Source of the DNA: Candidatus Melainabacteria bacterium 17Bon1m
Lineage (GTDB): Bacteria > Cyanobacteriota > Vampirovibrionia > Obscuribacterales > Obscuribacteraceae
NCBI GenBank assembly: GCA_032128875.1
Contig: JAVLKG010000001.1
Span: 416,001 to 480,000 of the forward strand
Length of the DNA: 64,000 bases
Reading direction: 5' to 3'
Shown here: piece by piece, positions 23,862 to 58,077 of the stretch
Layout: each line of letters starts with the position of its first letter
How positions within the stretch are numbered: the first letter of the stretch is position 1
The notes under the pieces: generated by a model
The model's database searches: none
What the model saw: the letters and a program-made list of their open reading frames with translations, nothing else
Told to the model about the DNA's origin: nothing
Position numbers and translations under genes: made by a program

Positions 23862-24549
23862 ACACGCTCTTGAGCGCATCCTTGGTAAAAACGAGGAGAT
23901 GGCTGAGCACAACAGCGATCATTTTCAGCGCTCCAAGACATGCGTGTTTAATCTTATGAGCGCCCCGGGTGCTGGAAAGACAACTCTTCTCGAGGCAACG
24001 CTGAGAAGCACTAAGAAGCAATTTACGTCTGCCGTTATCGAAGGCGATATGGTTGGCGATCTAGATGCAGACAGAATCAAAGCATTAAATGTGCCTGTGT
24101 ATCAAATCTCAACAGGGCGCAGTTGCCATCTCGATGCGCAGATGGTGGGTCGTTTGCTGCATGCAGAGAGCATTGTGGCCACACAGGCTCTTTTTATCGA
24201 GAACGTTGGAAATCTTGTTTGTCCAGCCGAGTTTCCACTGGGAGAATTTCGTCGCGTCGTTCTTCTATCTGTGACAGAGGGTGATGACAAGCCAATAAAA
24301 TATCCGGTAATTTTCCGAAACTGCGACCTGGTTGTATTCACAAAATGTGATCTGCTTGAGTATGTCAATTTCGATTTGAGTGCCGCTGAGAAGAATTTGA
24401 AGGCTCTCAATCCCAAACTAAAAACGCTGCGGGTATCATCGAAGACAGGCGATGGCATCGACGAATGGATAAATTGGCTGAACAACCAAATGACTGAGTA
24501 TCAGGCTCAACTTAAAAACGAACACCATGTGCATCACGCTGCCCACTAA
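23842..24549 (+). CDS. hypB: Nickel insertion GTPase HypB
   Basis: PGAGKT, CHLDA, ENVGNLVCPA, EGDDKP.KYP, TKCDL. Confidence 0.96.
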   Translation: MHESPDEHALERILGKNEEMAEHNSDHFQRSKTCVFNLMSAPGAGKTTLLEATLRSTKKQFTSAVIEGDMVGDLDADRIKALNVPVYQISTGRSCHLDAQMVGRLLHAESIVATQALFIENVGNLVCPAEFPLGEFRRVVLLSVTEGDDKPIKYPVIFRNCDLVVFTKCDLLEYVNFDLSAAEKNLKALNPKLKTLRVSSKTGDGIDEWINWLNNQMTEYQAQLKNEHHVHHAAH

Positions 24550-24745
24550 GGTTCTTTCTCTGGAAGGAAATAACGCCAGAGTTGATATTGCCGGACACGA
24601 GAGGAAAATTTTTATTCCCTTCGATAACGTGTTTCCTGGTCAATGGGTTCTCGTTTACGCCGGCGCTGCCATCGCAGTCATCGACGAGAAAGAAGCTCTC
24701 GAAATACTCGGATATTTGGACAGAGCCGCCAATTTGATGTCCTGA
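24527..24745 (+). CDS. hypC: Second, divergent HypC/HybG-family protein
   Basis: MCITLP; G.WVLVYAG.AI.VIDE.EA. Confidence 0.85.
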   Translation: MCITLPTKVLSLEGNNARVDIAGHERKIFIPFDNVFPGQWVLVYAGAAIAVIDEKEALEILGYLDRAANLMS

Positions 24746-24761
24746 TCATAGGTCCGCTTTG

Positions 24762-24830
24762 GTCATACTTAAGTATGACTTTTGTCTGATACTTTGAGCC
24801 GATATGCCATGCTGCAAAAGGCGGTATCTT
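24762..24830 (+). promoter_or_regulatory. Perfect 18-bp palindrome, second box and -10-like TATCTT
   Basis: GTCATACTTAAGTATGAC (24762-24779); TGAT-ACTTTGAG-CCGA (24787-24802); TATCTT (24825-24830). Confidence 0.75.
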
Positions 24831-24835
24831 AAGGG

Positions 24836-24937
24836 TGCAGAGAAACCCAAGGTGGAGAAAAAAGACTCCCCGCGGGCAGCAGGCACCAGAGCTATGCTCA
24901 GAGCCTGAAGACGCCAGTATTACTGGCGTCTTCTTTT
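24836..24937 (+). ncRNA. Candidate ~100-nt small RNA (or attenuator) between hypC2 and the hydrogenase operon
   Basis: Has its own boxed promoter, internal hairpins (GGAG/CTCC; CAGGC..GAGC-TAT-GCTC..GCCTG) and a terminator; no family recognised. Confidence 0.4.
24907..24937 (+). terminator. Intrinsic terminator
   Basis: GAAGACGCCAGTA-T-TACTGGCGTCTTC followed by TTTT. Confidence 0.8.
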
Positions 24938-24991
24938 GTGTCGTGGTGATTGCGCTATAAGTAGCCTCGCAGTTCGGCACTTTTTTCTTAT

Positions 24992-25035
24992 TAGTCCTGC
25001 CGAACGATACTTTAGAAGACATATTCGTCTGTAAT
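24992..25035 (+). promoter_or_regulatory. Hydrogenase operon box (24992-25007) plus -10-like TGTAAT (25030-25035)
   Basis: TAGT-CCTGCCGA-ACGA; 22-nt spacer. Confidence 0.55.
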
Positions 25036-25069
25036 GGTTGTGTTCGCCCCTTACGGCTCGACCCTGAAG

Positions 25070-26107
25070 ATGTCCCGAACTTTTCTATTACCAAAATCAC
25101 GATTCTGCGAGTTTTTCAGCTATTTGAAAGGGCTCGGCAAATTTTTTGCGCCTGTTCGCGTTTCCGAGCAGTCGTTTTCATTCAAGGAAATTGAAAACGA
25201 AGGCGAAATTGCTTGGGATGCACTAAGAACAATACTCCCGCCGAAGAAGTTCTTTTACCCGCAAAGGGAAACAGTGCTTAAGTACGATGGAAACGAAGTC
25301 AAAGCGACTGTTCCGGAAGACAATTTTCAAATCATTTTTGGCGTCCATCCGTGCGATCTGGCGGGTCTTGGAATTATGGACACCATTTTTGAGGCAGCTC
25401 CCAGCGATACTCATTACACAAAGCGGCGAGAACAAAGTCTTGTTATAGGTTTGTCTTGTATGCCGGACAAGTTTTGCTTTTGTCAGTCGATGGGAACTTC
25501 TTGCCCAACCAAAGGGTACGATCTTTTCTTGACTGATTTACGCGATGCTTTTTTCGGACAAGTTGACACCGCTCGCGCTGAGCAGGTACTGGCCGGCTGC
25601 GATCATTTGTTTTCGCCTGTTTCGGAAAATGATAAAGACAGCTACAAAGAATTTTGGATAGAGCGCGATAAGGCATTTACAAACGGTTTTGAGCCCGACA
25701 ATTTGCGCTCCACCCTAGATATGGAATGGGACAATCCACTATGGGATGAGCTGGGCAAAAGGTGCTTGAGTTGCGGCAATTGCACTCCTGTTTGTCCCAC
25801 TTGCTATTGTTTCGACCTTGTCGATATCGCCAATTTGAATGGACAGTCGGGAGAAAGACAGCGGGAATGGGATAGCTGTCAATTCGTTGGTTTTGCACAA
25901 GTTGCTGGTGACTACAATTTCCGACCGACACCGGTGGATCGTCTCAAATTTTGGTATCGCCACAAGTTGCATGGTTTTGACGATCCTTACGGATTCAAGA
26001 CGTGTGTTGGCTGCGGAAGATGCACGGTTTCATGTCCTTCCGGGATAGATGACATTGTCGACGTTGTGAAAAGGCTTCAAGGAAATAATGAACAATCCAA
26101 TAAGTAA
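25070..26107 (+). CDS. hyhB: Group 3b [NiFe]-hydrogenase beta subunit (4Fe-4S dicluster)
   Basis: PPKKFFYP, GVHPCD, CFC, CLSCGNCTPVCPTCYC, WDSC, CVGCGRCTVSCP. Confidence 0.9.
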   Translation: MSRTFLLPKSRFCEFFSYLKGLGKFFAPVRVSEQSFSFKEIENEGEIAWDALRTILPPKKFFYPQRETVLKYDGNEVKATVPEDNFQIIFGVHPCDLAGLGIMDTIFEAAPSDTHYTKRREQSLVIGLSCMPDKFCFCQSMGTSCPTKGYDLFLTDLRDAFFGQVDTARAEQVLAGCDHLFSPVSENDKDSYKEFWIERDKAFTNGFEPDNLRSTLDMEWDNPLWDELGKRCLSCGNCTPVCPTCYCFDLVDIANLNGQSGERQREWDSCQFVGFAQVAGDYNFRPTPVDRLKFWYRHKLHGFDDPYGFKTCVGCGRCTVSCPSGIDDIVDVVKRLQGNNEQSNK

Positions 26108-26942
26108 TTCGCGGTGTCCTCTTACACCATCTCGTGGCGTTATTCGCTCGATAATTCCGATGGCCAGTGATAACACCTTGTTTCAAATTACTGTCGAAGA
26201 AGATGGTCTTAACAATTGTATGCCAGGACAGTTCGTCCAGCTCTGGGTTCCTGGTGTCGGAGAGTCTCCTATTTCGGTCTGCTCCGGTCATGTCGGCGCA
26301 ACGATTGAACTGACTGTGCGCAAAGTAGGTCGAGTGACCAGTGCACTCTTTCAAATGAATGAGGGCGATTGGGTGGGCCTTCGCGGACCCTATGGAAATG
26401 GCTTTCCAGTCGAGCAGTACAAAGGAAAAGATCTTTGCTTGATTGCAGGGGGACTGGGGGTTGCGCCGATTAGATCCCTCTGGCAATACGTCCTTGATCA
26501 CAGAGAAAACTTTGGAAAAATCACTTTGATTTATGGCATGCGACATTCAATAGATCTGCTTTTCAGAAGCGAGTTCAAAATGCTATTGAGACGCAGAGAT
26601 ATGGATGTTTTCATCGCCGCTGAAGAATTGTGTGGTCCCGCTTTACCACCAATTTCTGTGCAATTGGGGCGTGTTACGGACATGATCAAGGCGGCTTCTC
26701 TCTCTCCTTGCGTTGAGGTTGCGGTGTGTGGACCACCTGTCATGTACAAGTACGTTATTAATGAACTGAAAGCAAAAGATATAGCGGAATCTCAGATTTG
26801 GCTGTCTTTAGAGCGGCATATGAAGTGTGGTATTGGCAAATGTGGACATTGTTTTATCGGTGGAGCGTTTGCTTGCAAAGCGGGGCCCGTTTTCAATTTG
26901 CCGCAGTTGCGTTTACTTCCTGAAGCAGTTGAGTGTGCTTGA
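26088..26942 (+). CDS. hyhG: Group 3b hydrogenase gamma subunit (FAD/NAD(P)-binding, 2Fe-2S)
   Basis: PGQFV, GE.PIS, RGPYGNGF, AGGLG.AP, CGPP.M, ERHMKCGIGKCGHC. Confidence 0.92.
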   Translation: MNNPISNSRCPLTPSRGVIRSIIPMASDNTLFQITVEEDGLNNCMPGQFVQLWVPGVGESPISVCSGHVGATIELTVRKVGRVTSALFQMNEGDWVGLRGPYGNGFPVEQYKGKDLCLIAGGLGVAPIRSLWQYVLDHRENFGKITLIYGMRHSIDLLFRSEFKMLLRRRDMDVFIAAEELCGPALPPISVQLGRVTDMIKAASLSPCVEVAVCGPPVMYKYVINELKAKDIAESQIWLSLERHMKCGIGKCGHCFIGGAFACKAGPVFNLPQLRLLPEAVECA

Positions 26943-27703
26943 AGATGGAAACGAATCCGCGTCCTTGCATTGCAGTAGAAGGGCTGACTGGGTGTGCCGG
27001 TGAGCTTCTTGTGATATTGGAAAATCTTGATAAATTGCTTCCCTTTGTCAGGGTGGCGAGCTTTCCTTTTGCGCAGAGCCAAAATGATGATGGTCCCGTT
27101 GATATCGCTTTTGTGGAAGGAAGCGTCAGCCAGCCGCATGACTTGGAAAAACTAAAAAGAATCCGTGCTAAAGCAAGGTGGCTTGTTGCTGTCGGGAATT
27201 GCGCGGTCTGGGGTTGCGTACAAGGAGGCGCCTGCGCAAAATGCAAAGTCACCGAGATGCTCGAAGCGGTCTATGGACAGCACAGCGAGATTCAAGCTCT
27301 TGAGTCCAAACCCCTTGATGCATACGTCAATGTCGATGTGAAACTTTCCGGTTGTCCTATAGACAAAACACAGTTTTTGTCAGTCACTGCCAGTTTGCTG
27401 AAAGATCACCTGCCTTACATCACTCACAAACCTGTTTGCCTGGAATGCAAGCTGAAGGAGAATCCTTGTGTGTTGATTGAGAAAAACCTACCCTGCCTGG
27501 GACCCGTTACCGCAGCAGGATGCGGTGCCCTTTGTCCAAGCCTGGGCGCTGCCTGTTATGGCTGCTGGGGACCCAGCCAAGACCCGCAAATGGATGCTAT
27601 GGCAACGATACTAAGCGAGAAAGGTTATGAAGCACTGGAGATAATGAATAGACTTAAGACATTTGGAGCCCCGGCTCATCTTTTTGAACGTATGAATGTT
27701 TAG
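26933..27703 (+). CDS. hyhS: Group 3b hydrogenase small (delta) subunit
   Basis: VEGSV, GNCA..G, GCP, VC.EC....C, CLGPVT.AGC.A.CP....CYGC.GP. Confidence 0.92.
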   Translation: MCLKMETNPRPCIAVEGLTGCAGELLVILENLDKLLPFVRVASFPFAQSQNDDGPVDIAFVEGSVSQPHDLEKLKRIRAKARWLVAVGNCAVWGCVQGGACAKCKVTEMLEAVYGQHSEIQALESKPLDAYVNVDVKLSGCPIDKTQFLSVTASLLKDHLPYITHKPVCLECKLKENPCVLIEKNLPCLGPVTAAGCGALCPSLGAACYGCWGPSQDPQMDAMATILSEKGYEALEIMNRLKTFGAPAHLFERMNV

Positions 27704-27762
27704 GTGAATCCATTGGGATTCTTTTCATATAGACTTAATTGATTTGGGCGAAGGAAAGGCAC

Positions 27763-29064
27763 ATGAGCGACGTCGAAAAGAAGATCATTCAAATACCGGA
27801 AATTACCCGAGTAGAAGGTCATGCTGCTGTCGAAATAGACATTGAAGACGGTAATGTGAAAGACGTACGGCTTGACGTCTTTGAAGGTACGCGTTTTTTC
27901 GAGCGCATTGTTCTCGGCCATAAATACGACGAACTTGCGCATATAACATCGCGTGTTTGTGCCATATGTTCCACAGGGCACGTGCTTGCCGCCATATTTG
28001 CAGTAGAGCGGATCTTTTCTTTTACTCCAACTCCCATTGAAACGAAATTGCGCGAACTAATGCACTTGGGCATGATTATTGAATCGCATGCCACTCATGT
28101 TTGCGCTCTGGCCTTGCCCGACTTTTTAAAAACTCCTGATCTTGCATCTTTTGCCGGACAGCATAAAGAGAAATTTCTTCTCTGGACTCATCTGCGCAAT
28201 CTTGGCGCGGAAATTCAAACTGCTGTAGGAGGAAGACCTTTCCATCCAGTCAATTTGCATGTCTCAGGTTTGTCAAAAATTCCCTCAACCGCTTCATTAG
28301 AAGGTGTCAAAGCAGACCTTAAACGCTCGTTGGACGAAGCGATTTTACTGGCGGAACTGGTTTTATCTTTTGCGCCACCGGTAGAAAGACTGACGGAGCC
28401 ATATTTTTTAGCGCTCATTCCACACGACGACAAATACGGATACTTTGGCGAGACTATACAGTCGAGTGAAGGATGGCAGAGATCTTGCCAGGAATACAAA
28501 GAGTATCTGGACGAGCAGGTCGTTGAATATAGCCATGCGAAACGCTCACTGGTGAAAGGAAAGCCTGTGATGGTCGGTGCAATGGCCCGGTTGGCACTGT
28601 TTGGTAAAAGGCTTACAAGAGAAGCTCTGAATGTCTATCAGGAGACACCACTCTTCAAAGGCGACAGTAATTCCATATGGAACAATGCCGCCCAAGCAAT
28701 TGAAATAATCCAGGCAATCGAAAGAGCAATTGAAATCGTCGATGAAGTCGAGGCTCTTAAGAAAGAACAGTCTGCCGAGAAGAAGCCGCTCGAAATTGTT
28801 GCGGGAAGTGCCACTGGCGCCGTCGAATGTCCTCGCGGCACGCTTTATCACTATTACGAAATCGACGAAAACGGCGTCATTCGTGCGGCAGACATGATCA
28901 CGCCATCGGCGCAAAATACTGCCCGAATCGAACTGGACATCAAAGAAGTGGTCAGTCAAAGCAAAGAAAAAGAAATGCTCGGACCACATCTCGAAACGCT
29001 CGTAAGAGCCTATGATCCGTGCAACACCTGTGCCACCCACATGGTGGCAATCAACTGGAAGTAA
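27763..29064 (+). CDS. hyhL: Group 3b [NiFe]-hydrogenase large (alpha) subunit
   Basis: TRVEGH, L1 RVCAIC, PRG.L.H, L2 DPCNTCATH with a cleavable C-terminal tail. Confidence 0.95.
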   Translation: MSDVEKKIIQIPEITRVEGHAAVEIDIEDGNVKDVRLDVFEGTRFFERIVLGHKYDELAHITSRVCAICSTGHVLAAIFAVERIFSFTPTPIETKLRELMHLGMIIESHATHVCALALPDFLKTPDLASFAGQHKEKFLLWTHLRNLGAEIQTAVGGRPFHPVNLHVSGLSKIPSTASLEGVKADLKRSLDEAILLAELVLSFAPPVERLTEPYFLALIPHDDKYGYFGETIQSSEGWQRSCQEYKEYLDEQVVEYSHAKRSLVKGKPVMVGAMARLALFGKRLTREALNVYQETPLFKGDSNSIWNNAAQAIEIIQAIERAIEIVDEVEALKKEQSAEKKPLEIVAGSATGAVECPRGTLYHYYEIDENGVIRAADMITPSAQNTARIELDIKEVVSQSKEKEMLGPHLETLVRAYDPCNTCATHMVAINWK

Positions 29065-36890: not shown

Positions 36891-36918
36891 GCGTGGCTCA
36901 TTCAAAAGTATGAGCCAC

Positions 36919-37680
36919 TCAGACTATGCCGCGCCGCAGTGCATGTACCGCTGCTTGGGTTCTGTCGTCTACAGACAGCTTATTGAGAATGTTTCTGACG
37001 TGCGTTTTTGTTGTAGGCAGCGAAATAAAGAGCTTGTCTGAAATTTGCTGGTTGGACAGACCTTCGACAATCAACCCCAGCACTTCGAGCTCTCTTGTCG
37101 AAAGCGGTTCTACATACGGTCTGTCCGGTACATGACCTTCGTCCGGAGAATCTTTCTTTCCTGCATGGGCCGCCGGCTCTGCATCTTGGTTTTCTTCCCC
37201 GGTCGCTGCTTGCTCTTGGGAGGTATGTGACTGTTGCGAATACAACTTCAGAACTTTGCTGGCAATGGCGGTATCCAGCCAGGCATCGCCTGCCTTTACT
37301 GTGCGTATAGCCATGTAAAGACGCGAATCTTCGACGTCTTTCAAGCAATAACCGGATGCACCGGCAGTGAAAGAAGCCATAACATCCTGGTCATTATCAT
37401 GTTGCGTAAGCATGATGATTTTGGCGTTACTTCCGCTTTCCATAATCTTCTTCGACGCTTGAATGCCGTCCATTATCGGCATGCCTACATCCATCAAGAT
37501 TACGTCTGGTTTGAGCAAGGCAGCTTCTCGAACCGCTTCTTCTCCATTGGATGCCTCCCCGACAACAATTAAATCGCTTTCACGCTTCAAGACTGTTTTA
37601 ATACCAACCCGCGTCAGGGCGTGGTCTTCAACCAATAGAATGCGTATCGTCTTGCCTTCGTTTTTGCTTTCGTCCGTCAT
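36919..37680 (-). CDS. NarL/LuxR-family response regulator
   Basis: REC domain (VEDH, LMD, LT, LK) and LuxR HTH LSTRELEVL..GLSNQQI...T.KTHVRNIL.KL. Confidence 0.95.
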   Translation of the reverse strand: MTDESKNEGKTIRILLVEDHALTRVGIKTVLKRESDLIVVGEASNGEEAVREAALLKPDVILMDVGMPIMDGIQASKKIMESGSNAKIIMLTQHDNDQDVMASFTAGASGYCLKDVEDSRLYMAIRTVKAGDAWLDTAIASKVLKLYSQQSHTSQEQAATGEENQDAEPAAHAGKKDSPDEGHVPDRPYVEPLSTRELEVLGLIVEGLSNQQISDKLFISLPTTKTHVRNILNKLSVDDRTQAAVHALRRGIV

Positions 37681-37783
37681 ATTTTAATTTCCAAGCCGGG
37701 ACGTAATTATATATACTCCCAAATCGAAGCAGTAGTCTGCTTGACGACTGGCGTGTGACCGAATAAATACTGTGGGCTTGACA

Positions 37784-39388
37784 ATGAATGTGACTTCTCC
37801 ATTTTCGGAGCTGAGTGAATCTGAGATCAAACAGCGCCAGCGTTGGCTTGAATTCGAGTCGATTTCTGAAGCGGAAATAGCTGCTATTAACGCGCTTCTC
37901 GAAAAACATGCAGATGAGCTCATGGACAGCATGTACGAACACTTTTTGAGCTTCGAGGAAACGCGCAGTTTCTTCCCTACCGAGCAGATAATGCAGAGAG
38001 CCAAAGGCGCTCAAAAGCAGTATTTCTTGCGACTCGGTCGGGGCGTCTATGACACTGATTATGTGAGAGACAGACTCAGAGTAGGATTGACTCACCACCG
38101 AATTGAGCTCGATCCAAAATGGTACATAGGAGCTTACAACAGAGCTGCATCATGGCTTATGCCGAGACTCTTTGCCGAAAACGATTTAAGCGAATCGGCT
38201 AAAGTCGACCTGGCGAGGTCACTTCTAAAACTCATTTTTTTCGACATGGGGCTGGCCATTGAAAGTTATATCGGGTCGAAAGAATTGGCTCTCCTCGAGC
38301 ATCGAGATGCAATTAGAGAGTTAGAGACGGAAAAGAGAGTCACAAAGAGCATTCTCGAAAGTGCTCCTATCGGCATTGTAAGTTTAGATCTCGATTACAG
38401 ATGTCTTGAGTGCAATGAAGAGTTTGCTCAGCTTGTTTCCTGTGATTCCACTTCTGACGTTATTGGAAAATTGCTCTTTGATCTGGCCCCAAAGCTTCCT
38501 CAGGAGCCTTTCAAACACGTAATCGAAACAGGTCAACCAAGCCAGTTCTCGGCCAATGCTCTTAATTTTGCAAAGAACAATCCCACTGAGGTTACTTACT
38601 GGGATTGGGCGGCCTGGCCGGTAAAAAACAAAGGTGTATACGGCATTGTTGCCATGTTCTCGAATGCAACCGATAGAGTTCAGTTGCAACAACAAAGAGA
38701 AGATTTTGTTGCCACTCTTACTCATGACCTAAAAACCCCTGTTTCTGCAACCAATCGTGCGGTCAAGCTCATTCTTGCCGGGGATTTTGGCGAAGTTTCT
38801 GCCGAACTAAGGGAAATTCTCGAGACAGTTTTGCAAAGCAACACAACTCTGTATGCGCTCGTTCAAACTTTGCTTGATGTCTATCGCTTTGACAGCGGTG
38901 TCAAGGTTATGGATATGAAAGAGTGTAACCTGGCCGGGATAGTTACACAGCTTGTCACCGAAATCATGCCTTTGGCTCAAGAAAGGCGCATTCAGCTCAA
39001 GGCTGTTTTGCCATTTGATCTTGAGTGCATAAATTGCGACCAAGAAGAAGTCCGCCGTGTTGTGCAGAACTTGATTGACAATTCGCTTAAATTCACTCCG
39101 GCTGGCGGTACCGTCACCGTCACAATGTCTCAGAACGATGAACTCACCACCGTCTCGGTAAAAGACACTGGAAAAGGCATCCCGCCTGAGAACATGTCCA
39201 AGCTATTCCAAAGATTCTGGCAAGCCGGATCAAGCGGTCGATACTACGCTAGTACCGGACTCGGTCTTTACCTGGCAAGAAAAATTGTCGAAGGTCATGG
39301 CGGCAAAATTTCATGCGAGAGTAAGGTGGGAGAAGGCAGCACATTCTCGTTCGAGCTGCCTAATTCAGGCCAAACTCCAAAGAGCTAG
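37784..39388 (+). CDS. Globin-coupled (protoglobin)-PAS sensor histidine kinase
   Basis: Globin with MYEHF, AQKQYF and proximal His in RVGLTHHRIEL.P.WY.GAY; PAS (ILESAPIGI); H-box THDLKTP; intact N, G1, F and G2 boxes; no TM. Confidence 0.92.
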   Translation: MNVTSPFSELSESEIKQRQRWLEFESISEAEIAAINALLEKHADELMDSMYEHFLSFEETRSFFPTEQIMQRAKGAQKQYFLRLGRGVYDTDYVRDRLRVGLTHHRIELDPKWYIGAYNRAASWLMPRLFAENDLSESAKVDLARSLLKLIFFDMGLAIESYIGSKELALLEHRDAIRELETEKRVTKSILESAPIGIVSLDLDYRCLECNEEFAQLVSCDSTSDVIGKLLFDLAPKLPQEPFKHVIETGQPSQFSANALNFAKNNPTEVTYWDWAAWPVKNKGVYGIVAMFSNATDRVQLQQQREDFVATLTHDLKTPVSATNRAVKLILAGDFGEVSAELREILETVLQSNTTLYALVQTLLDVYRFDSGVKVMDMKECNLAGIVTQLVTEIMPLAQERRIQLKAVLPFDLECINCDQEEVRRVVQNLIDNSLKFTPAGGTVTVTMSQNDELTTVSVKDTGKGIPPENMSKLFQRFWQAGSSGRYYASTGLGLYLARKIVEGHGGKISCESKVGEGSTFSFELPNSGQTPKS

Positions 39389-56587: not shown

Positions 56588-58077
56588 CAGGCTCGTTTCT
56601 CCGCTAATGCTTCGGTACTTGTGGCTTGAGACAACGGCAACTCCAAAATAATTGAATTGCCATCGCCAAGGCGCTTGTAACTAATCGATCCGTGATGCCT
56701 CTGCAAAATTGGGACTGCTATAGCTAGACCTAGTGTGTGGACTTTGCAGCCGCCGGCTATTTGTGCTTGATGCAGTTTGTCGAAAAGTTTTGACGCTTCT
56801 TCGTCTCCTAGAGGCACTGCTTGGTCTGACACTTCCAGTTGATAACAATCATTCGACGCAGCTCCATTCACTATGATCCTGCTACCTTCTGGCGCCCTTG
56901 AAGCTGAAATGCGAAGTATTCTTTCCAGCACCCGAGAAATTTGCTCTCGGTCGATCTTTAGCGGCGCATCTTCGGTTCGGTTCACCACATGGAAACAACC
57001 AAGATATGATGCTTGCCCTAAAGTATGAGATACCAGATCTTCGCTATTGCAATCCTTCAAATCGAGCTTCACTTCACTATTTTCAAAGCTTTCCATAAGA
57101 AGCAGGTCATTAACTAAAGAGAGGCAATTTTGAAGAGCCTGACTGGCCTCTTCCAGGTTTTGTGATCCGCTTTCGCTTAGTGAGTCAGACATGAATTTGC
57201 TCAATGTTGCGAGTGATATATCGGCAGCCATGAGCGGGCTGCGAACATCGTGAGCCATCATTTGCATGAGCGAGCGACGATAATCCGCTATGTCCGCGAG
57301 TTTCCAACTGACTTTAGCCAATTCAACGCTGATTTCCCGCAACTCGTCGCTGCCTGTAATGACTTCATTTAAGGGTTCATTTAGGGTCAATTTTTTTGCC
57401 ATGTCGGATAAGGCATTTATTCTGCCCATCATGTTTTTGTGAAATTCTCGGTACAAAAACAGCGCTAGAAGGACGTTTGCAACGAGTCCGACCCAGATAA
57501 TCTGAGAGATTAGCGTTATTTCCCGTCTTTGGGACTGGAGCGACTGCAAATAGTTATCTCTGATTGCGGCTTGTTCGTCGTGTAAAAGACGGCTCTCTTT
57601 TCCGCCAATTTTTACCCATTCGTTAATGCGCCTCATCTTTATGAATATGTTGGCGAAGCTCATGCTTGGGTCTTCGGCCTTGATGAAGATTTCTTGTTGT
57701 CTTTTTAAGAGGCTTGATATCTCACGTTGAAAAGTCGCGTGGTTCTCGTCTCTAGGCATATTGTTTTCGACCTGAGCCAGGTCATCACGAACAATCGCCC
57801 AGCCTTGATTGATGAGCGGGCTGAAGAATCTATGCGACCCATTCATCATCGCATTACTTCCACCCAGAAGAATTTCCGTGACAGCATAAATAGCATGCGT
57901 GAGCTTGAGTACTACTGTCATTTGTTTCCGACTCGTTTCTATTTGAGATTCTGCCTGTGTTGCAGCTCTATTCAGAATCAAGAGGAGGAAGCAATTTATG
58001 AGCAGAGGCAGAAGCACCAGGGAGAGTCCTTGTAATAGGAGCCCTGATTTGAAACGTGGTGTCTTTAAGATAGGCAC
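56587..58077 (-). CDS. Membrane histidine-kinase-like protein; canonical H-box, degenerate ATPase
   Basis: 2 TM; MAHDVRSPL; N box reads ERILRISA, G1 reads DQAVPL. Confidence 0.8.
   Translation of the reverse strand: MPILKTPRFKSGLLLQGLSLVLLPLLINCFLLLILNRAATQAESQIETSRKQMTVVLKLTHAIYAVTEILLGGSNAMMNGSHRFFSPLINQGWAIVRDDLAQVENNMPRDENHATFQREISSLLKRQQEIFIKAEDPSMSFANIFIKMRRINEWVKIGGKESRLLHDEQAAIRDNYLQSLQSQRREITLISQIIWVGLVANVLLALFLYREFHKNMMGRINALSDMAKKLTLNEPLNEVITGSDELREISVELAKVSWKLADIADYRRSLMQMMAHDVRSPLMAADISLATLSKFMSDSLSESGSQNLEEASQALQNCLSLVNDLLLMESFENSEVKLDLKDCNSEDLVSHTLGQASYLGCFHVVNRTEDAPLKIDREQISRVLERILRISASRAPEGSRIIVNGAASNDCYQLEVSDQAVPLGDEEASKLFDKLHQAQIAGGCKVHTLGLAIAVPILQRHHGSISYKRLGDGNSIILELPLSQATSTEALAEKRA

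Follow-up and report, generated by a model that had tools for sequence, protein, structure and literature searches.

The 64,000-nt stretch analysed here (hereafter the window) comes from Candidatus Melainabacteria bacterium 17Bon1m, whose genome we refer to as G000. Within it, a 288-nt spacer separates hypC (24527-24745) from a four-gene NiFe hydrogenase operon (25034-29064) whose products are an Fe-S subunit, an FAD/NAD subunit, and the small and large subunits. Genes for three universal stress proteins and a maturation protease, together with hypA and hypB, precede the spacer on the same strand, and hypF is divergent. The spacer houses an RNA locus that begins 93 nt past the hypC stop codon, on the same strand. 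A preliminary description of this DNA proposed that a palindromic regulator box here drives a stand-alone, terminated, non-coding transcript starting near 24836. The conserved block from 24839 to the terminator, covariation, the fixed promoter spacing, and the varied genomic context support that proposal. The best explanation overall is probably that 24839-24939 (+) is a separate gene for a non-coding RNA of ~100 nt, which would be driven by an activator and act in trans. That the element is a real, separately transcribed, structured RNA is very probable. As judged by comparison of genomes, it belongs to a new RNA family that is real and well supported, familiar in kind, and conserved across one family of non-photosynthetic cyanobacterial relatives.

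A BLASTN search with positions 24700-25100 against 40 relatives matched 10 of the 24 genomes from the same family and none of the 16 from other families. Beyond the two closest relatives, the matches are confined to query positions ~140-240 (~24839-24937), and the flanks are unmatched. In these comparisons, 24839-24939 (+) is the sole part of the spacer between hypC and the hydrogenase that is conserved in relatives. A covariance model of the element (R1) recovered the RNA from 53/104 genomes of the family, 24/37 genera, and 27/38 high-quality genomes, with scores of 28-112 bits and one to three copies per carrier genome. A class-wide sample gave R1 matches in 21 of 30 family genomes versus 2 of 120 others, and 7 of 150 genomes were matched in a phylum-wide sample. 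All matches outside the family are weak (22.7-27.3 bits).

One 26-bit match elsewhere in G000 (contig C2, 60777-60857; locus L093) was considered as a paralogue of the RNA and rejected, as hairpin 2 is missing and the likeness is confined to the terminator stem and part of hairpin 1. This locus has a terminator hairpin whose stem is nearly the same in sequence as that of the RNA's terminator, and it scores on both strands. In a genome of the same genus (G004, contig C151, ~57479-57581; L016), only the 3′ part of the RNA is kept, consisting of the end of hairpin 2 and the terminator. This copy is apparently truncated at its 5′ end, and its downstream flank resembles that of G009.

The conserved sequence has a modular organization. 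A first alignment of 11 sequences contains an invariant 5′ block (AGAAACCC), a variable first hairpin, the invariant GGGCAGCAGGCA, a second hairpin, and GAGCCUGAAGAC, which runs into the terminator hairpin. From a MAFFT alignment made without the covariance model, RNAalifold predicts three hairpins with 27 pairs, 13 of which stay paired through two-sided changes. The preliminary description had suggested covariation across homologous regions as a check, and the helices do covary: among 36 distinct sequences, two-sided changes occur at 18 of the 27 pairs and 93.3% of cells are paired, in an alignment that was fitted to the covariance model and is thus biased towards structure, whereas the MAFFT/RNAalifold result is independent of the model. 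None of 500 shuffles reached any of five measures of covariation, and sliding the partner by 1-3 columns left 32-50% of cells paired. The changes are spread over all three hairpins in the 36 sequences: two-sided changes affect 5/6 pairs of the hairpin 1 inner stem and 4/4 apical and 2/5 basal pairs of hairpin 2, and 7/9 modelled pairs of the terminator stem covary, with 100% of its cells paired. G-U pairs are frequent (e.g., nine at each of two pairs) and compatible with the + strand only. The sequence of the terminator stem is unusually conserved.

Folding of the window element (24836-24945) gives -45.9 kcal/mol (z = -4.36), and 0/200 shuffles are as stable. The terminator hairpin (24907-24933) has 12 pairs, of which 7 are G-C, and a 3-nt loop, and is followed by TTTTGT. 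Both results bear out the hairpins and strong terminator noted in the preliminary description. Going by the alignment, the RNA is non-coding, because insertions and deletions in hairpin 1 change its length by non-multiples of three among homologues and because no start codon, on reading the alignment, is conserved within the invariant core. Hairpin 1 varies freely at its apex, with insertions of up to ~67 nt in two relatives. In L042 (G099) and L044 (G100), an extra structured insertion of ~40 nt in hairpin 1 brings the RNA to ~143 nt, and the core is unaltered. Two motifs picked out by eye were rejected. A hammerhead-like CUGAAGA beside a helix is not followed by a GAAA strand after the helix and has no Rfam ribozyme match, and a candidate kink-turn in hairpin 2 lacks tandem G-A pairs.

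The sequence upstream of the RNA is also patterned. We anchored 37 distinct upstream regions on the first modelled RNA base and scored them for a -10 hexamer and for regulator boxes, counting a proximal box if at least 8 of 12 positions of TCATCC-N4-GGATGA matched in a 6-position window overlapping the -35 region. A -10 hexamer of the form TAnnnT that ends 5-10 nt (mostly 7-9) before the RNA is found in 32/37 promoters (shuffles: mean 5.2, maximum 11). The proximal box occurs in 25/37 (shuffles: mean 0.6, maximum 4), a distal box ~23 bp further upstream in 18/37 (mean 0.7, maximum 3), and both boxes in 13/37 (mean 0.02, maximum 1), and neighbouring position windows give 0-1 boxes. The pattern recurs in metagenome contigs. 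Among 19 usable loci of 21, the proximal box is present in 14, the distal box in 6, and the -10 hexamer in 16; ten of the 19 have previously unseen core sequences, and 7 of those ten have the proximal box. The centre of the proximal box lies 42.5-47.5 nt before the first modelled base in the homologous promoters. Because the -10 hexamer ends ~8 nt before that base and the transcription start is placed ~1-3 nt before it, the proximal box would be centred near -41.5 to -43.5, the position expected of a class II activator. These elements indicate that the RNA has a promoter of its own, apart from the neighbouring genes.

In the window, the second box and the TATCTT hexamer are present as previously described (Table 1). 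The centres of the two boxes are 24 bp apart, and 22 nt separate the proximal box from TATCTT. The 18-mer palindrome (24762-24779) was correctly singled out as the only perfect one in the window: it has no other match there at three or fewer mismatches, and 0/100 shuffles contain any match. Its description as the best regulon box holds in that sense but not genome-wide, where its 15.5 bits place it at about rank 21, versus 21.4 bits for the top site, which is on another contig.

Table 1. Positions of the RNA gene, its promoter elements, and associated regulatory features in the window.
Feature	Position	Strand	Remarks
Distal regulator box	24763..24778		Perfect 16-bp palindrome, core of the 18-mer 24762-24779; 15.5 bits with the family matrix
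Proximal regulator box	24787..24802		Weak copy, 7/12 consensus positions (by reading the sequence); overlaps the -35 region
-10 hexamer TATCTT	24825..24830	+	8 nt before the first conserved base
Conserved RNA, ~100 nt	24839..24939	+	Covariance-model match of 110.5 bits; predicted 5′ end at 24836-24839, predicted 3′ end in the T run 24934-24939
Hairpin 1	24846..24876	+	Invariant CCC/GGG base, purine-rich 5′ arm, CU-rich 3′ arm, variable apex
Hairpin 2	24880..24907	+	Nearly invariant CAGGC/GCCUG base, conserved internal loop, covarying apical stem
Intrinsic terminator	24907..24937	+	12-bp stem and T run
Hydrogenase operon promoter	24992..25035	+	Box 24992-25007, 22-nt spacer, -10 TGTAAT 25030-25035
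Candidate regulator, REC + GerE (NarL/LuxR-type) response regulator	36919..37680	-	Pfam
Candidate sensor, protoglobin-PAS-HisKA-HATPase histidine kinase	37772..39388	+	Pfam; kinase-core matches; divergent from the regulator gene

The surroundings of the RNA differ from genome to genome. Across 29 loci taken from species-representative genomes, the closest upstream gene is divergent in 15/29, and the closest downstream gene is convergent in 11/29 and on the same strand in 17/29, with a contig end at the remaining locus. At 7/29 loci, neither neighbour is able to share a transcript with the RNA. The neighbouring genes encode, among others, universal stress proteins, hydrogenase and hyp proteins, a desaturase, a bifunctional nuclease, a dienelactone hydrolase, globin, protoglobin, rubredoxin, cytochrome c, RtcB or archease, and a sigma factor, and no family is constant. 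Many of them look like members of the same stress island. The RtcB (L048) and archease (L053) genes flank the RNA at two loci, which suggests that the island includes RNA-repair genes in some relatives.

The hydrogenase large subunit is found in 65/104 genomes of the family. In a hand cross-tabulation of the 104 genomes, some of which are incomplete where a feature was scored as not found, 39 have both the RNA and the hydrogenase, 14 have the RNA only, 26 have the hydrogenase only, and in 25 neither is found. The RNA and the hydrogenase are mildly associated in these related genomes, without one depending on the other.

To define the set of genes that share the box, we built a weight matrix from 40 boxes in the homologues' promoters, leaving out those of the window and of its closest relative. 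G000 contains 69 sites of at least 14 bits versus 31 in a reversed-sequence control, and 8 sites versus 1 at 17 bits or more. Eight of the 69 sites fall within the window, which makes up 0.85% of the genome, and 29 of the 69 lie outside long open reading frames (ORFs). Box-like sites matching at least 9/12 positions are about twofold enriched in the window (54 versus 24.5 in shuffles). The top site (21.4 bits) is a full consensus palindrome on contig C4 (position 237256; L074), 96 nt upstream of a paralogous REC+GerE gene, which suggests autoregulation or cross-talk between paralogues. Other high-scoring sites flank a second REC+GerE paralogue beside a P-type ATPase or precede a hemerythrin gene, a rubredoxin-ScdA-hemerythrin gene, and PAS kinases. 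By this distribution, the box appears to mark a regulon.

Pfam matches in the window include NorB, a globin, a ribosome hibernation factor, and about a dozen universal stress protein genes, several of them in tandem. The window also encodes a GNAT acetyltransferase, avidin-family proteins, a rhodanese, P-type ATPases, a beta-CASP RNase, hypF, cytochromes c, PEP synthase/PPDK, a fatty-acid desaturase, and an AIR-synthase-type protein (PF00586/PF02769) that was read as HypE. Overall, the 64 kb reads as a low-oxygen and nitric-oxide stress island.

Only one DNA-binding regulator, the REC+GerE protein, was identified among the window's Pfam matches. Among solved structures, it is closest to VraR (160 bits), followed by NarL (123 bits) and DevR/DosR (111 bits), and with the protoglobin kinase encoded beside it, it forms a probable haem-sensor two-component pair. 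The phospho-acceptor of this kinase is of the HisKA type, not HisKA_3. An orthologue of the regulator occurs in 98/104 family genomes. In 16 genomes, the RNA is no more than 61 kb from the orthologue on the same contig, and the two are 85 nt apart in G094. Co-occurrence of the RNA and the regulator was rejected as evidence for a link, as the near-universal presence of the regulator makes it uninformative. The NarL-type regulator, encoded 12 kb from the RNA, is the most likely candidate to bind the RNA's boxes, and control of the RNA by the box-binding regulator of the stress island appears fairly likely.

We propose the following mode of expression and action. A NarL-type regulator, with its adjacent protoglobin (haem-sensor) kinase, would switch the RNA on, binding as a dimer to TCATCC-N4-GGATGA boxes. 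One box would overlap the -35 region, as in class II activation, and the second would lie about two helical turns upstream. From this activator-requiring promoter, transcription would begin ~7 nt after TATCTT and stop at the strong intrinsic terminator. The RNA would be induced together with the island, that is, with universal stress proteins, the group-3-like NiFe hydrogenase and hyp genes, globins, NorB, and the ribosome hibernation factor. Because its genomic context varies, the RNA most likely acts in trans. As a three-hairpin riboregulator, it would do so without Hfq or CsrA, neither of which was found in the G000 genome (93% complete). There are two candidate contact surfaces. One is the invariant free 5′ end, AGAGAAA followed by CCC. 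The other is in hairpin 1, where the CU-rich 3′ arm, often reading CUCC or CCUCC, resembles an anti-Shine-Dalgarno sequence and might pair with ribosome-binding sites. Base pairing as the mode of action is a tentative suggestion, a little less probable than its contrary. Sequence comparison shows the conservation, the covarying fold, the layout of promoter and terminator, and the independence of the gene from its neighbours; which regulator and signal induce the RNA, where precisely it starts and ends, and its action in trans on targets are features that we infer.

Several observations weigh against a separate, activator-driven RNA that acts by base pairing in trans. The window's own proximal box matches only 7/12 positions, the strong site being the distal one (a near-identical proximal site in G011 scores 8/12), and 12/37 promoters lack a recognizable proximal box. 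Presence of the regulator does not predict presence of the RNA: in genus g32, the regulator is found in 14/15 genomes and the RNA in 0/15. In 5/29 loci, and in the window too, hydrogenase or hyp genes follow the RNA on the same strand, and read-through may make some contribution near the hydrogenase. The most conserved nucleotides are in helices and junctions (the CCC/GGG pairs do not covary, and CAGGC/GCCUG is nearly invariant), which is unusual for a base-pairing small RNA, and conservation of single-stranded sequence is limited to a 7-nt stretch at the 5′ end. The genome shows no enrichment for the complement of the 5′ decamer (11 occurrences versus 15 for the reversed word) or for its sub-words. 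A crude duplex scan of 93 window gene starts against 638 background starts placed the window genes within the background range; the best window energy was -49.1 kcal/mol versus a background first percentile of -49.3, in a single-genome scan whose unconstrained duplex energies are uninformative. Four of 24 listed expression runs were examined, as contigs, which can show neither ends nor levels. In one RNA-labelled run (X2), the whole 1.2 kb is spanned by a single contig of 17,971 letters, which is uninformative on a separate transcript and may be DNA or the source of the assembly. The three metatranscriptomes (X18, X19, and X20) each yielded one short contig that covers only 24407-24725 (hypB/hypC) with 95-99% likeness, and in such contigs a lack of cover carries no weight for or against the RNA.

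Some alternatives tie the element to its neighbours. It could be a cis-acting leader, an attenuator or riboswitch whose terminator gates read-through into the hydrogenase or hyp genes. Its same-strand position upstream of the hydrogenase in the window, L057, and L066, upstream of hypB and the hydrogenase in L059 and L064, and upstream of hypF in L047 would suit such a role, as would the conservation of the terminator stem. We nevertheless consider a leader improbable. Judged by gene order, the RNA is a separate gene and not a leader, because its neighbours vary, the next gene is convergent in 11/29 loci (the remaining neighbours belonging to unrelated families), and the hydrogenase has its own box and -10 hexamer after the RNA terminator. 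In addition, there is no strict co-occurrence, given that 14/53 genomes with the RNA have no hydrogenase match and 26/65 with the hydrogenase have no RNA match, and no alternative anti-terminator pairing was seen by eye. The hydrogenase promoter elements noted in the preliminary description are well founded: the box, the 22-nt spacer, and TGTAAT recur in two relatives, G011 and G007, the latter with a 70%-identical operon. It is very improbable that the element lacks a separate transcript and is simply the 3′ untranslated region of the hypABC operon together with its terminator. The RNA does follow hypC on the same strand, the hairpin at 24907-24933 would stop read-through from the hyp genes, and the only other terminator-like site between the hypC stop codon and the RNA is the palindromic box itself. 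Against this, only the closest relative shares the window's hyp-RNA arrangement, 15/29 loci have their upstream gene on the opposite strand, the promoter elements are conserved at fixed spacing, and a terminator alone leaves two further covarying hairpins unexplained. Termination of the hyp operon, one of the alternatives in the preliminary description, may thus be an additional local role in the window but cannot explain conservation elsewhere. Least probable of all is a small protein, encoded by the 34-codon ORF at 24804-24908 or another short frame, or the end of a repeat or mobile element. Such ORFs exist mechanically, and some genomes do have 2-3 copies of the RNA. However, the ORF is not conserved, its ATG lies upstream of the -10 hexamer (as the preliminary description recognized), and the length changes in hairpin 1 and the lack of a conserved start codon argue against any encoded product. 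A repeat is opposed by the low copy number (1-3), the unrelated flanks, and the fact that neither inverted-repeat ends nor transposase neighbours were seen at the loci.

A different kind of alternative keeps the separate, box-driven gene and changes what the RNA does. It might bind a protein or small ligand instead of mRNA, a reading to which we give a minor share of the probability. The invariant nucleotides cluster in helix bases and junctions (GAAACCC, GGGCAGCAGGCA, and GAGCCUGAAGAC), including the CCC/GGG pairs without covariation and the nearly invariant CAGGC/GCCUG, and the freely variable hairpin 1 apex tolerates large insertions, as in RNAs with a conserved core. This arrangement of invariant helix bases and junctions with a variable apex fits a protein- or ligand-binding core just as well as it fits pairing, and the target scans gave no signal. 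On the other side, no Rfam riboswitch or protein-binding family matches the RNA, CsrA was not found in the genome, and invariance of the 5′ tail would also be typical of a seed region. It is conceivable, if unlikely, that the RNA belongs to a new class of stand-alone sensor or scaffold RNAs of a dormancy programme commanded by a haem-sensing two-component system. If this were true, it would also be the first description of a riboregulator from the non-photosynthetic sister lineage of cyanobacteria.

A separate, activator-driven RNA gene remains our preferred reading, and we compared it with known RNAs. Scans with Rfam release 15 of the element and seven homologous loci found no family that reaches threshold, which is compatible with an undescribed RNA. 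The only Rfam model that touches the element is RF00370 (sroD), which is similar in length and has several hairpins and a terminator. Membership in that family was rejected, as the scores are 17.4 bits (E 4.5) in the window and 25.1 bits (E 0.47) in one of the seven homologous loci versus a gathering score of 50.

The closest functional parallel appears to be DrrS (MTS1338) of Mycobacterium tuberculosis. DrrS is described as a DosR-regulated small RNA of 108 nt, whose core promoter depends on the NarL-family regulator of the hypoxia and nitric-oxide regulon through a site that overlaps the -35 region in a class II manner, with cooperative binding of the regulator to several sites (PMC5360333). 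It has no intrinsic terminator, is processed from a longer precursor, and has no homologue in M. smegmatis (PMC5360333). The two RNAs share a length of ~100 nt, a regulator-type box overlapping the -35 region, and regulons that include universal stress proteins, and they differ in that the window RNA ends in a canonical intrinsic terminator whereas the 3′ end of DrrS is made by processing. A common origin across phyla is improbable, since even M. smegmatis lacks a DrrS homologue, and the Rfam scans gave no sign of a relationship in sequence or structure. The likeness to DrrS drawn in the preliminary description stands as an analogy, in the NarL-family regulator site that overlaps the -35 region, and not as homology.

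The comparison extends to the regulons. For a possible analogue of a DosR/DevR-type regulon, the sequence offers a REC+GerE regulator, a putative haem-sensor kinase, and enriched boxes, the best of them upstream of a paralogous regulator gene. The window regulator is closer to VraR and NarL than to DevR, and the TCATCC-N4-GGATGA consensus differs from the DosR box. DosS and DosT carry GAF domains, and the window sensor carries a protoglobin domain. A second parallel is FnrS of Escherichia coli, an FNR-activated, anaerobic, stand-alone small RNA with a site near -41.5 and a Rho-independent terminator. The window RNA is similar in being a stand-alone small RNA gene with a putative low-oxygen factor site near -41.5 and a terminator of this type. 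FnrS requires Hfq as well as an FNR (CRP-family) site, whereas Hfq was not found in G000 and no CRP/FNR-type regulator gene is among the window's Pfam matches. The Rfam scans of the element and its homologous loci gave no likeness to FnrS.

A small RNA under a low-oxygen or nitric-oxide master regulator, as in mycobacteria (DrrS) and enterobacteria (FnrS), is thus suggested to have arisen again in a distant phylum, as a new example of a familiar design. Melainabacteria-type organisms have barely, if at all, been brought into culture, and they bear on the question of how cyanobacterial ancestors coped with oxygen. A full-text search, which did not extend to supplements and subscription journals, turned up no publication on small RNAs from either Obscuribacter or Melainabacteria. 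The RNA family, with its alignment, structure, and model, is ready for curation, and the defined promoter motif TCATCC-N4-GGATGA together with the candidate haem-sensor kinase and regulator pair constitutes a testable unit.

Some further features of the region and of the box were noted. The mechanical ORF of the hydrogenase Fe-S subunit probably starts 12 codons too early, and ATG 25070 is the likely start codon, because the first ATG (25034) lies within the -10 hexamer TGTAAT and the N-terminus is conserved only from 25070. A 15.0-bit box (36898-36913) is found just beyond the stop codon of the regulator gene and precedes a tandem gene for a universal stress protein. With 19.5 bits, the box at L092 (contig C7 of G000, ~186100) ranks second in the genome and is beside the start of a 154-aa ORF. 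On its other side is a stretch of ~260 nt without any ORF of at least 50 codons that ends in a long perfect hairpin and could be another short transcript.

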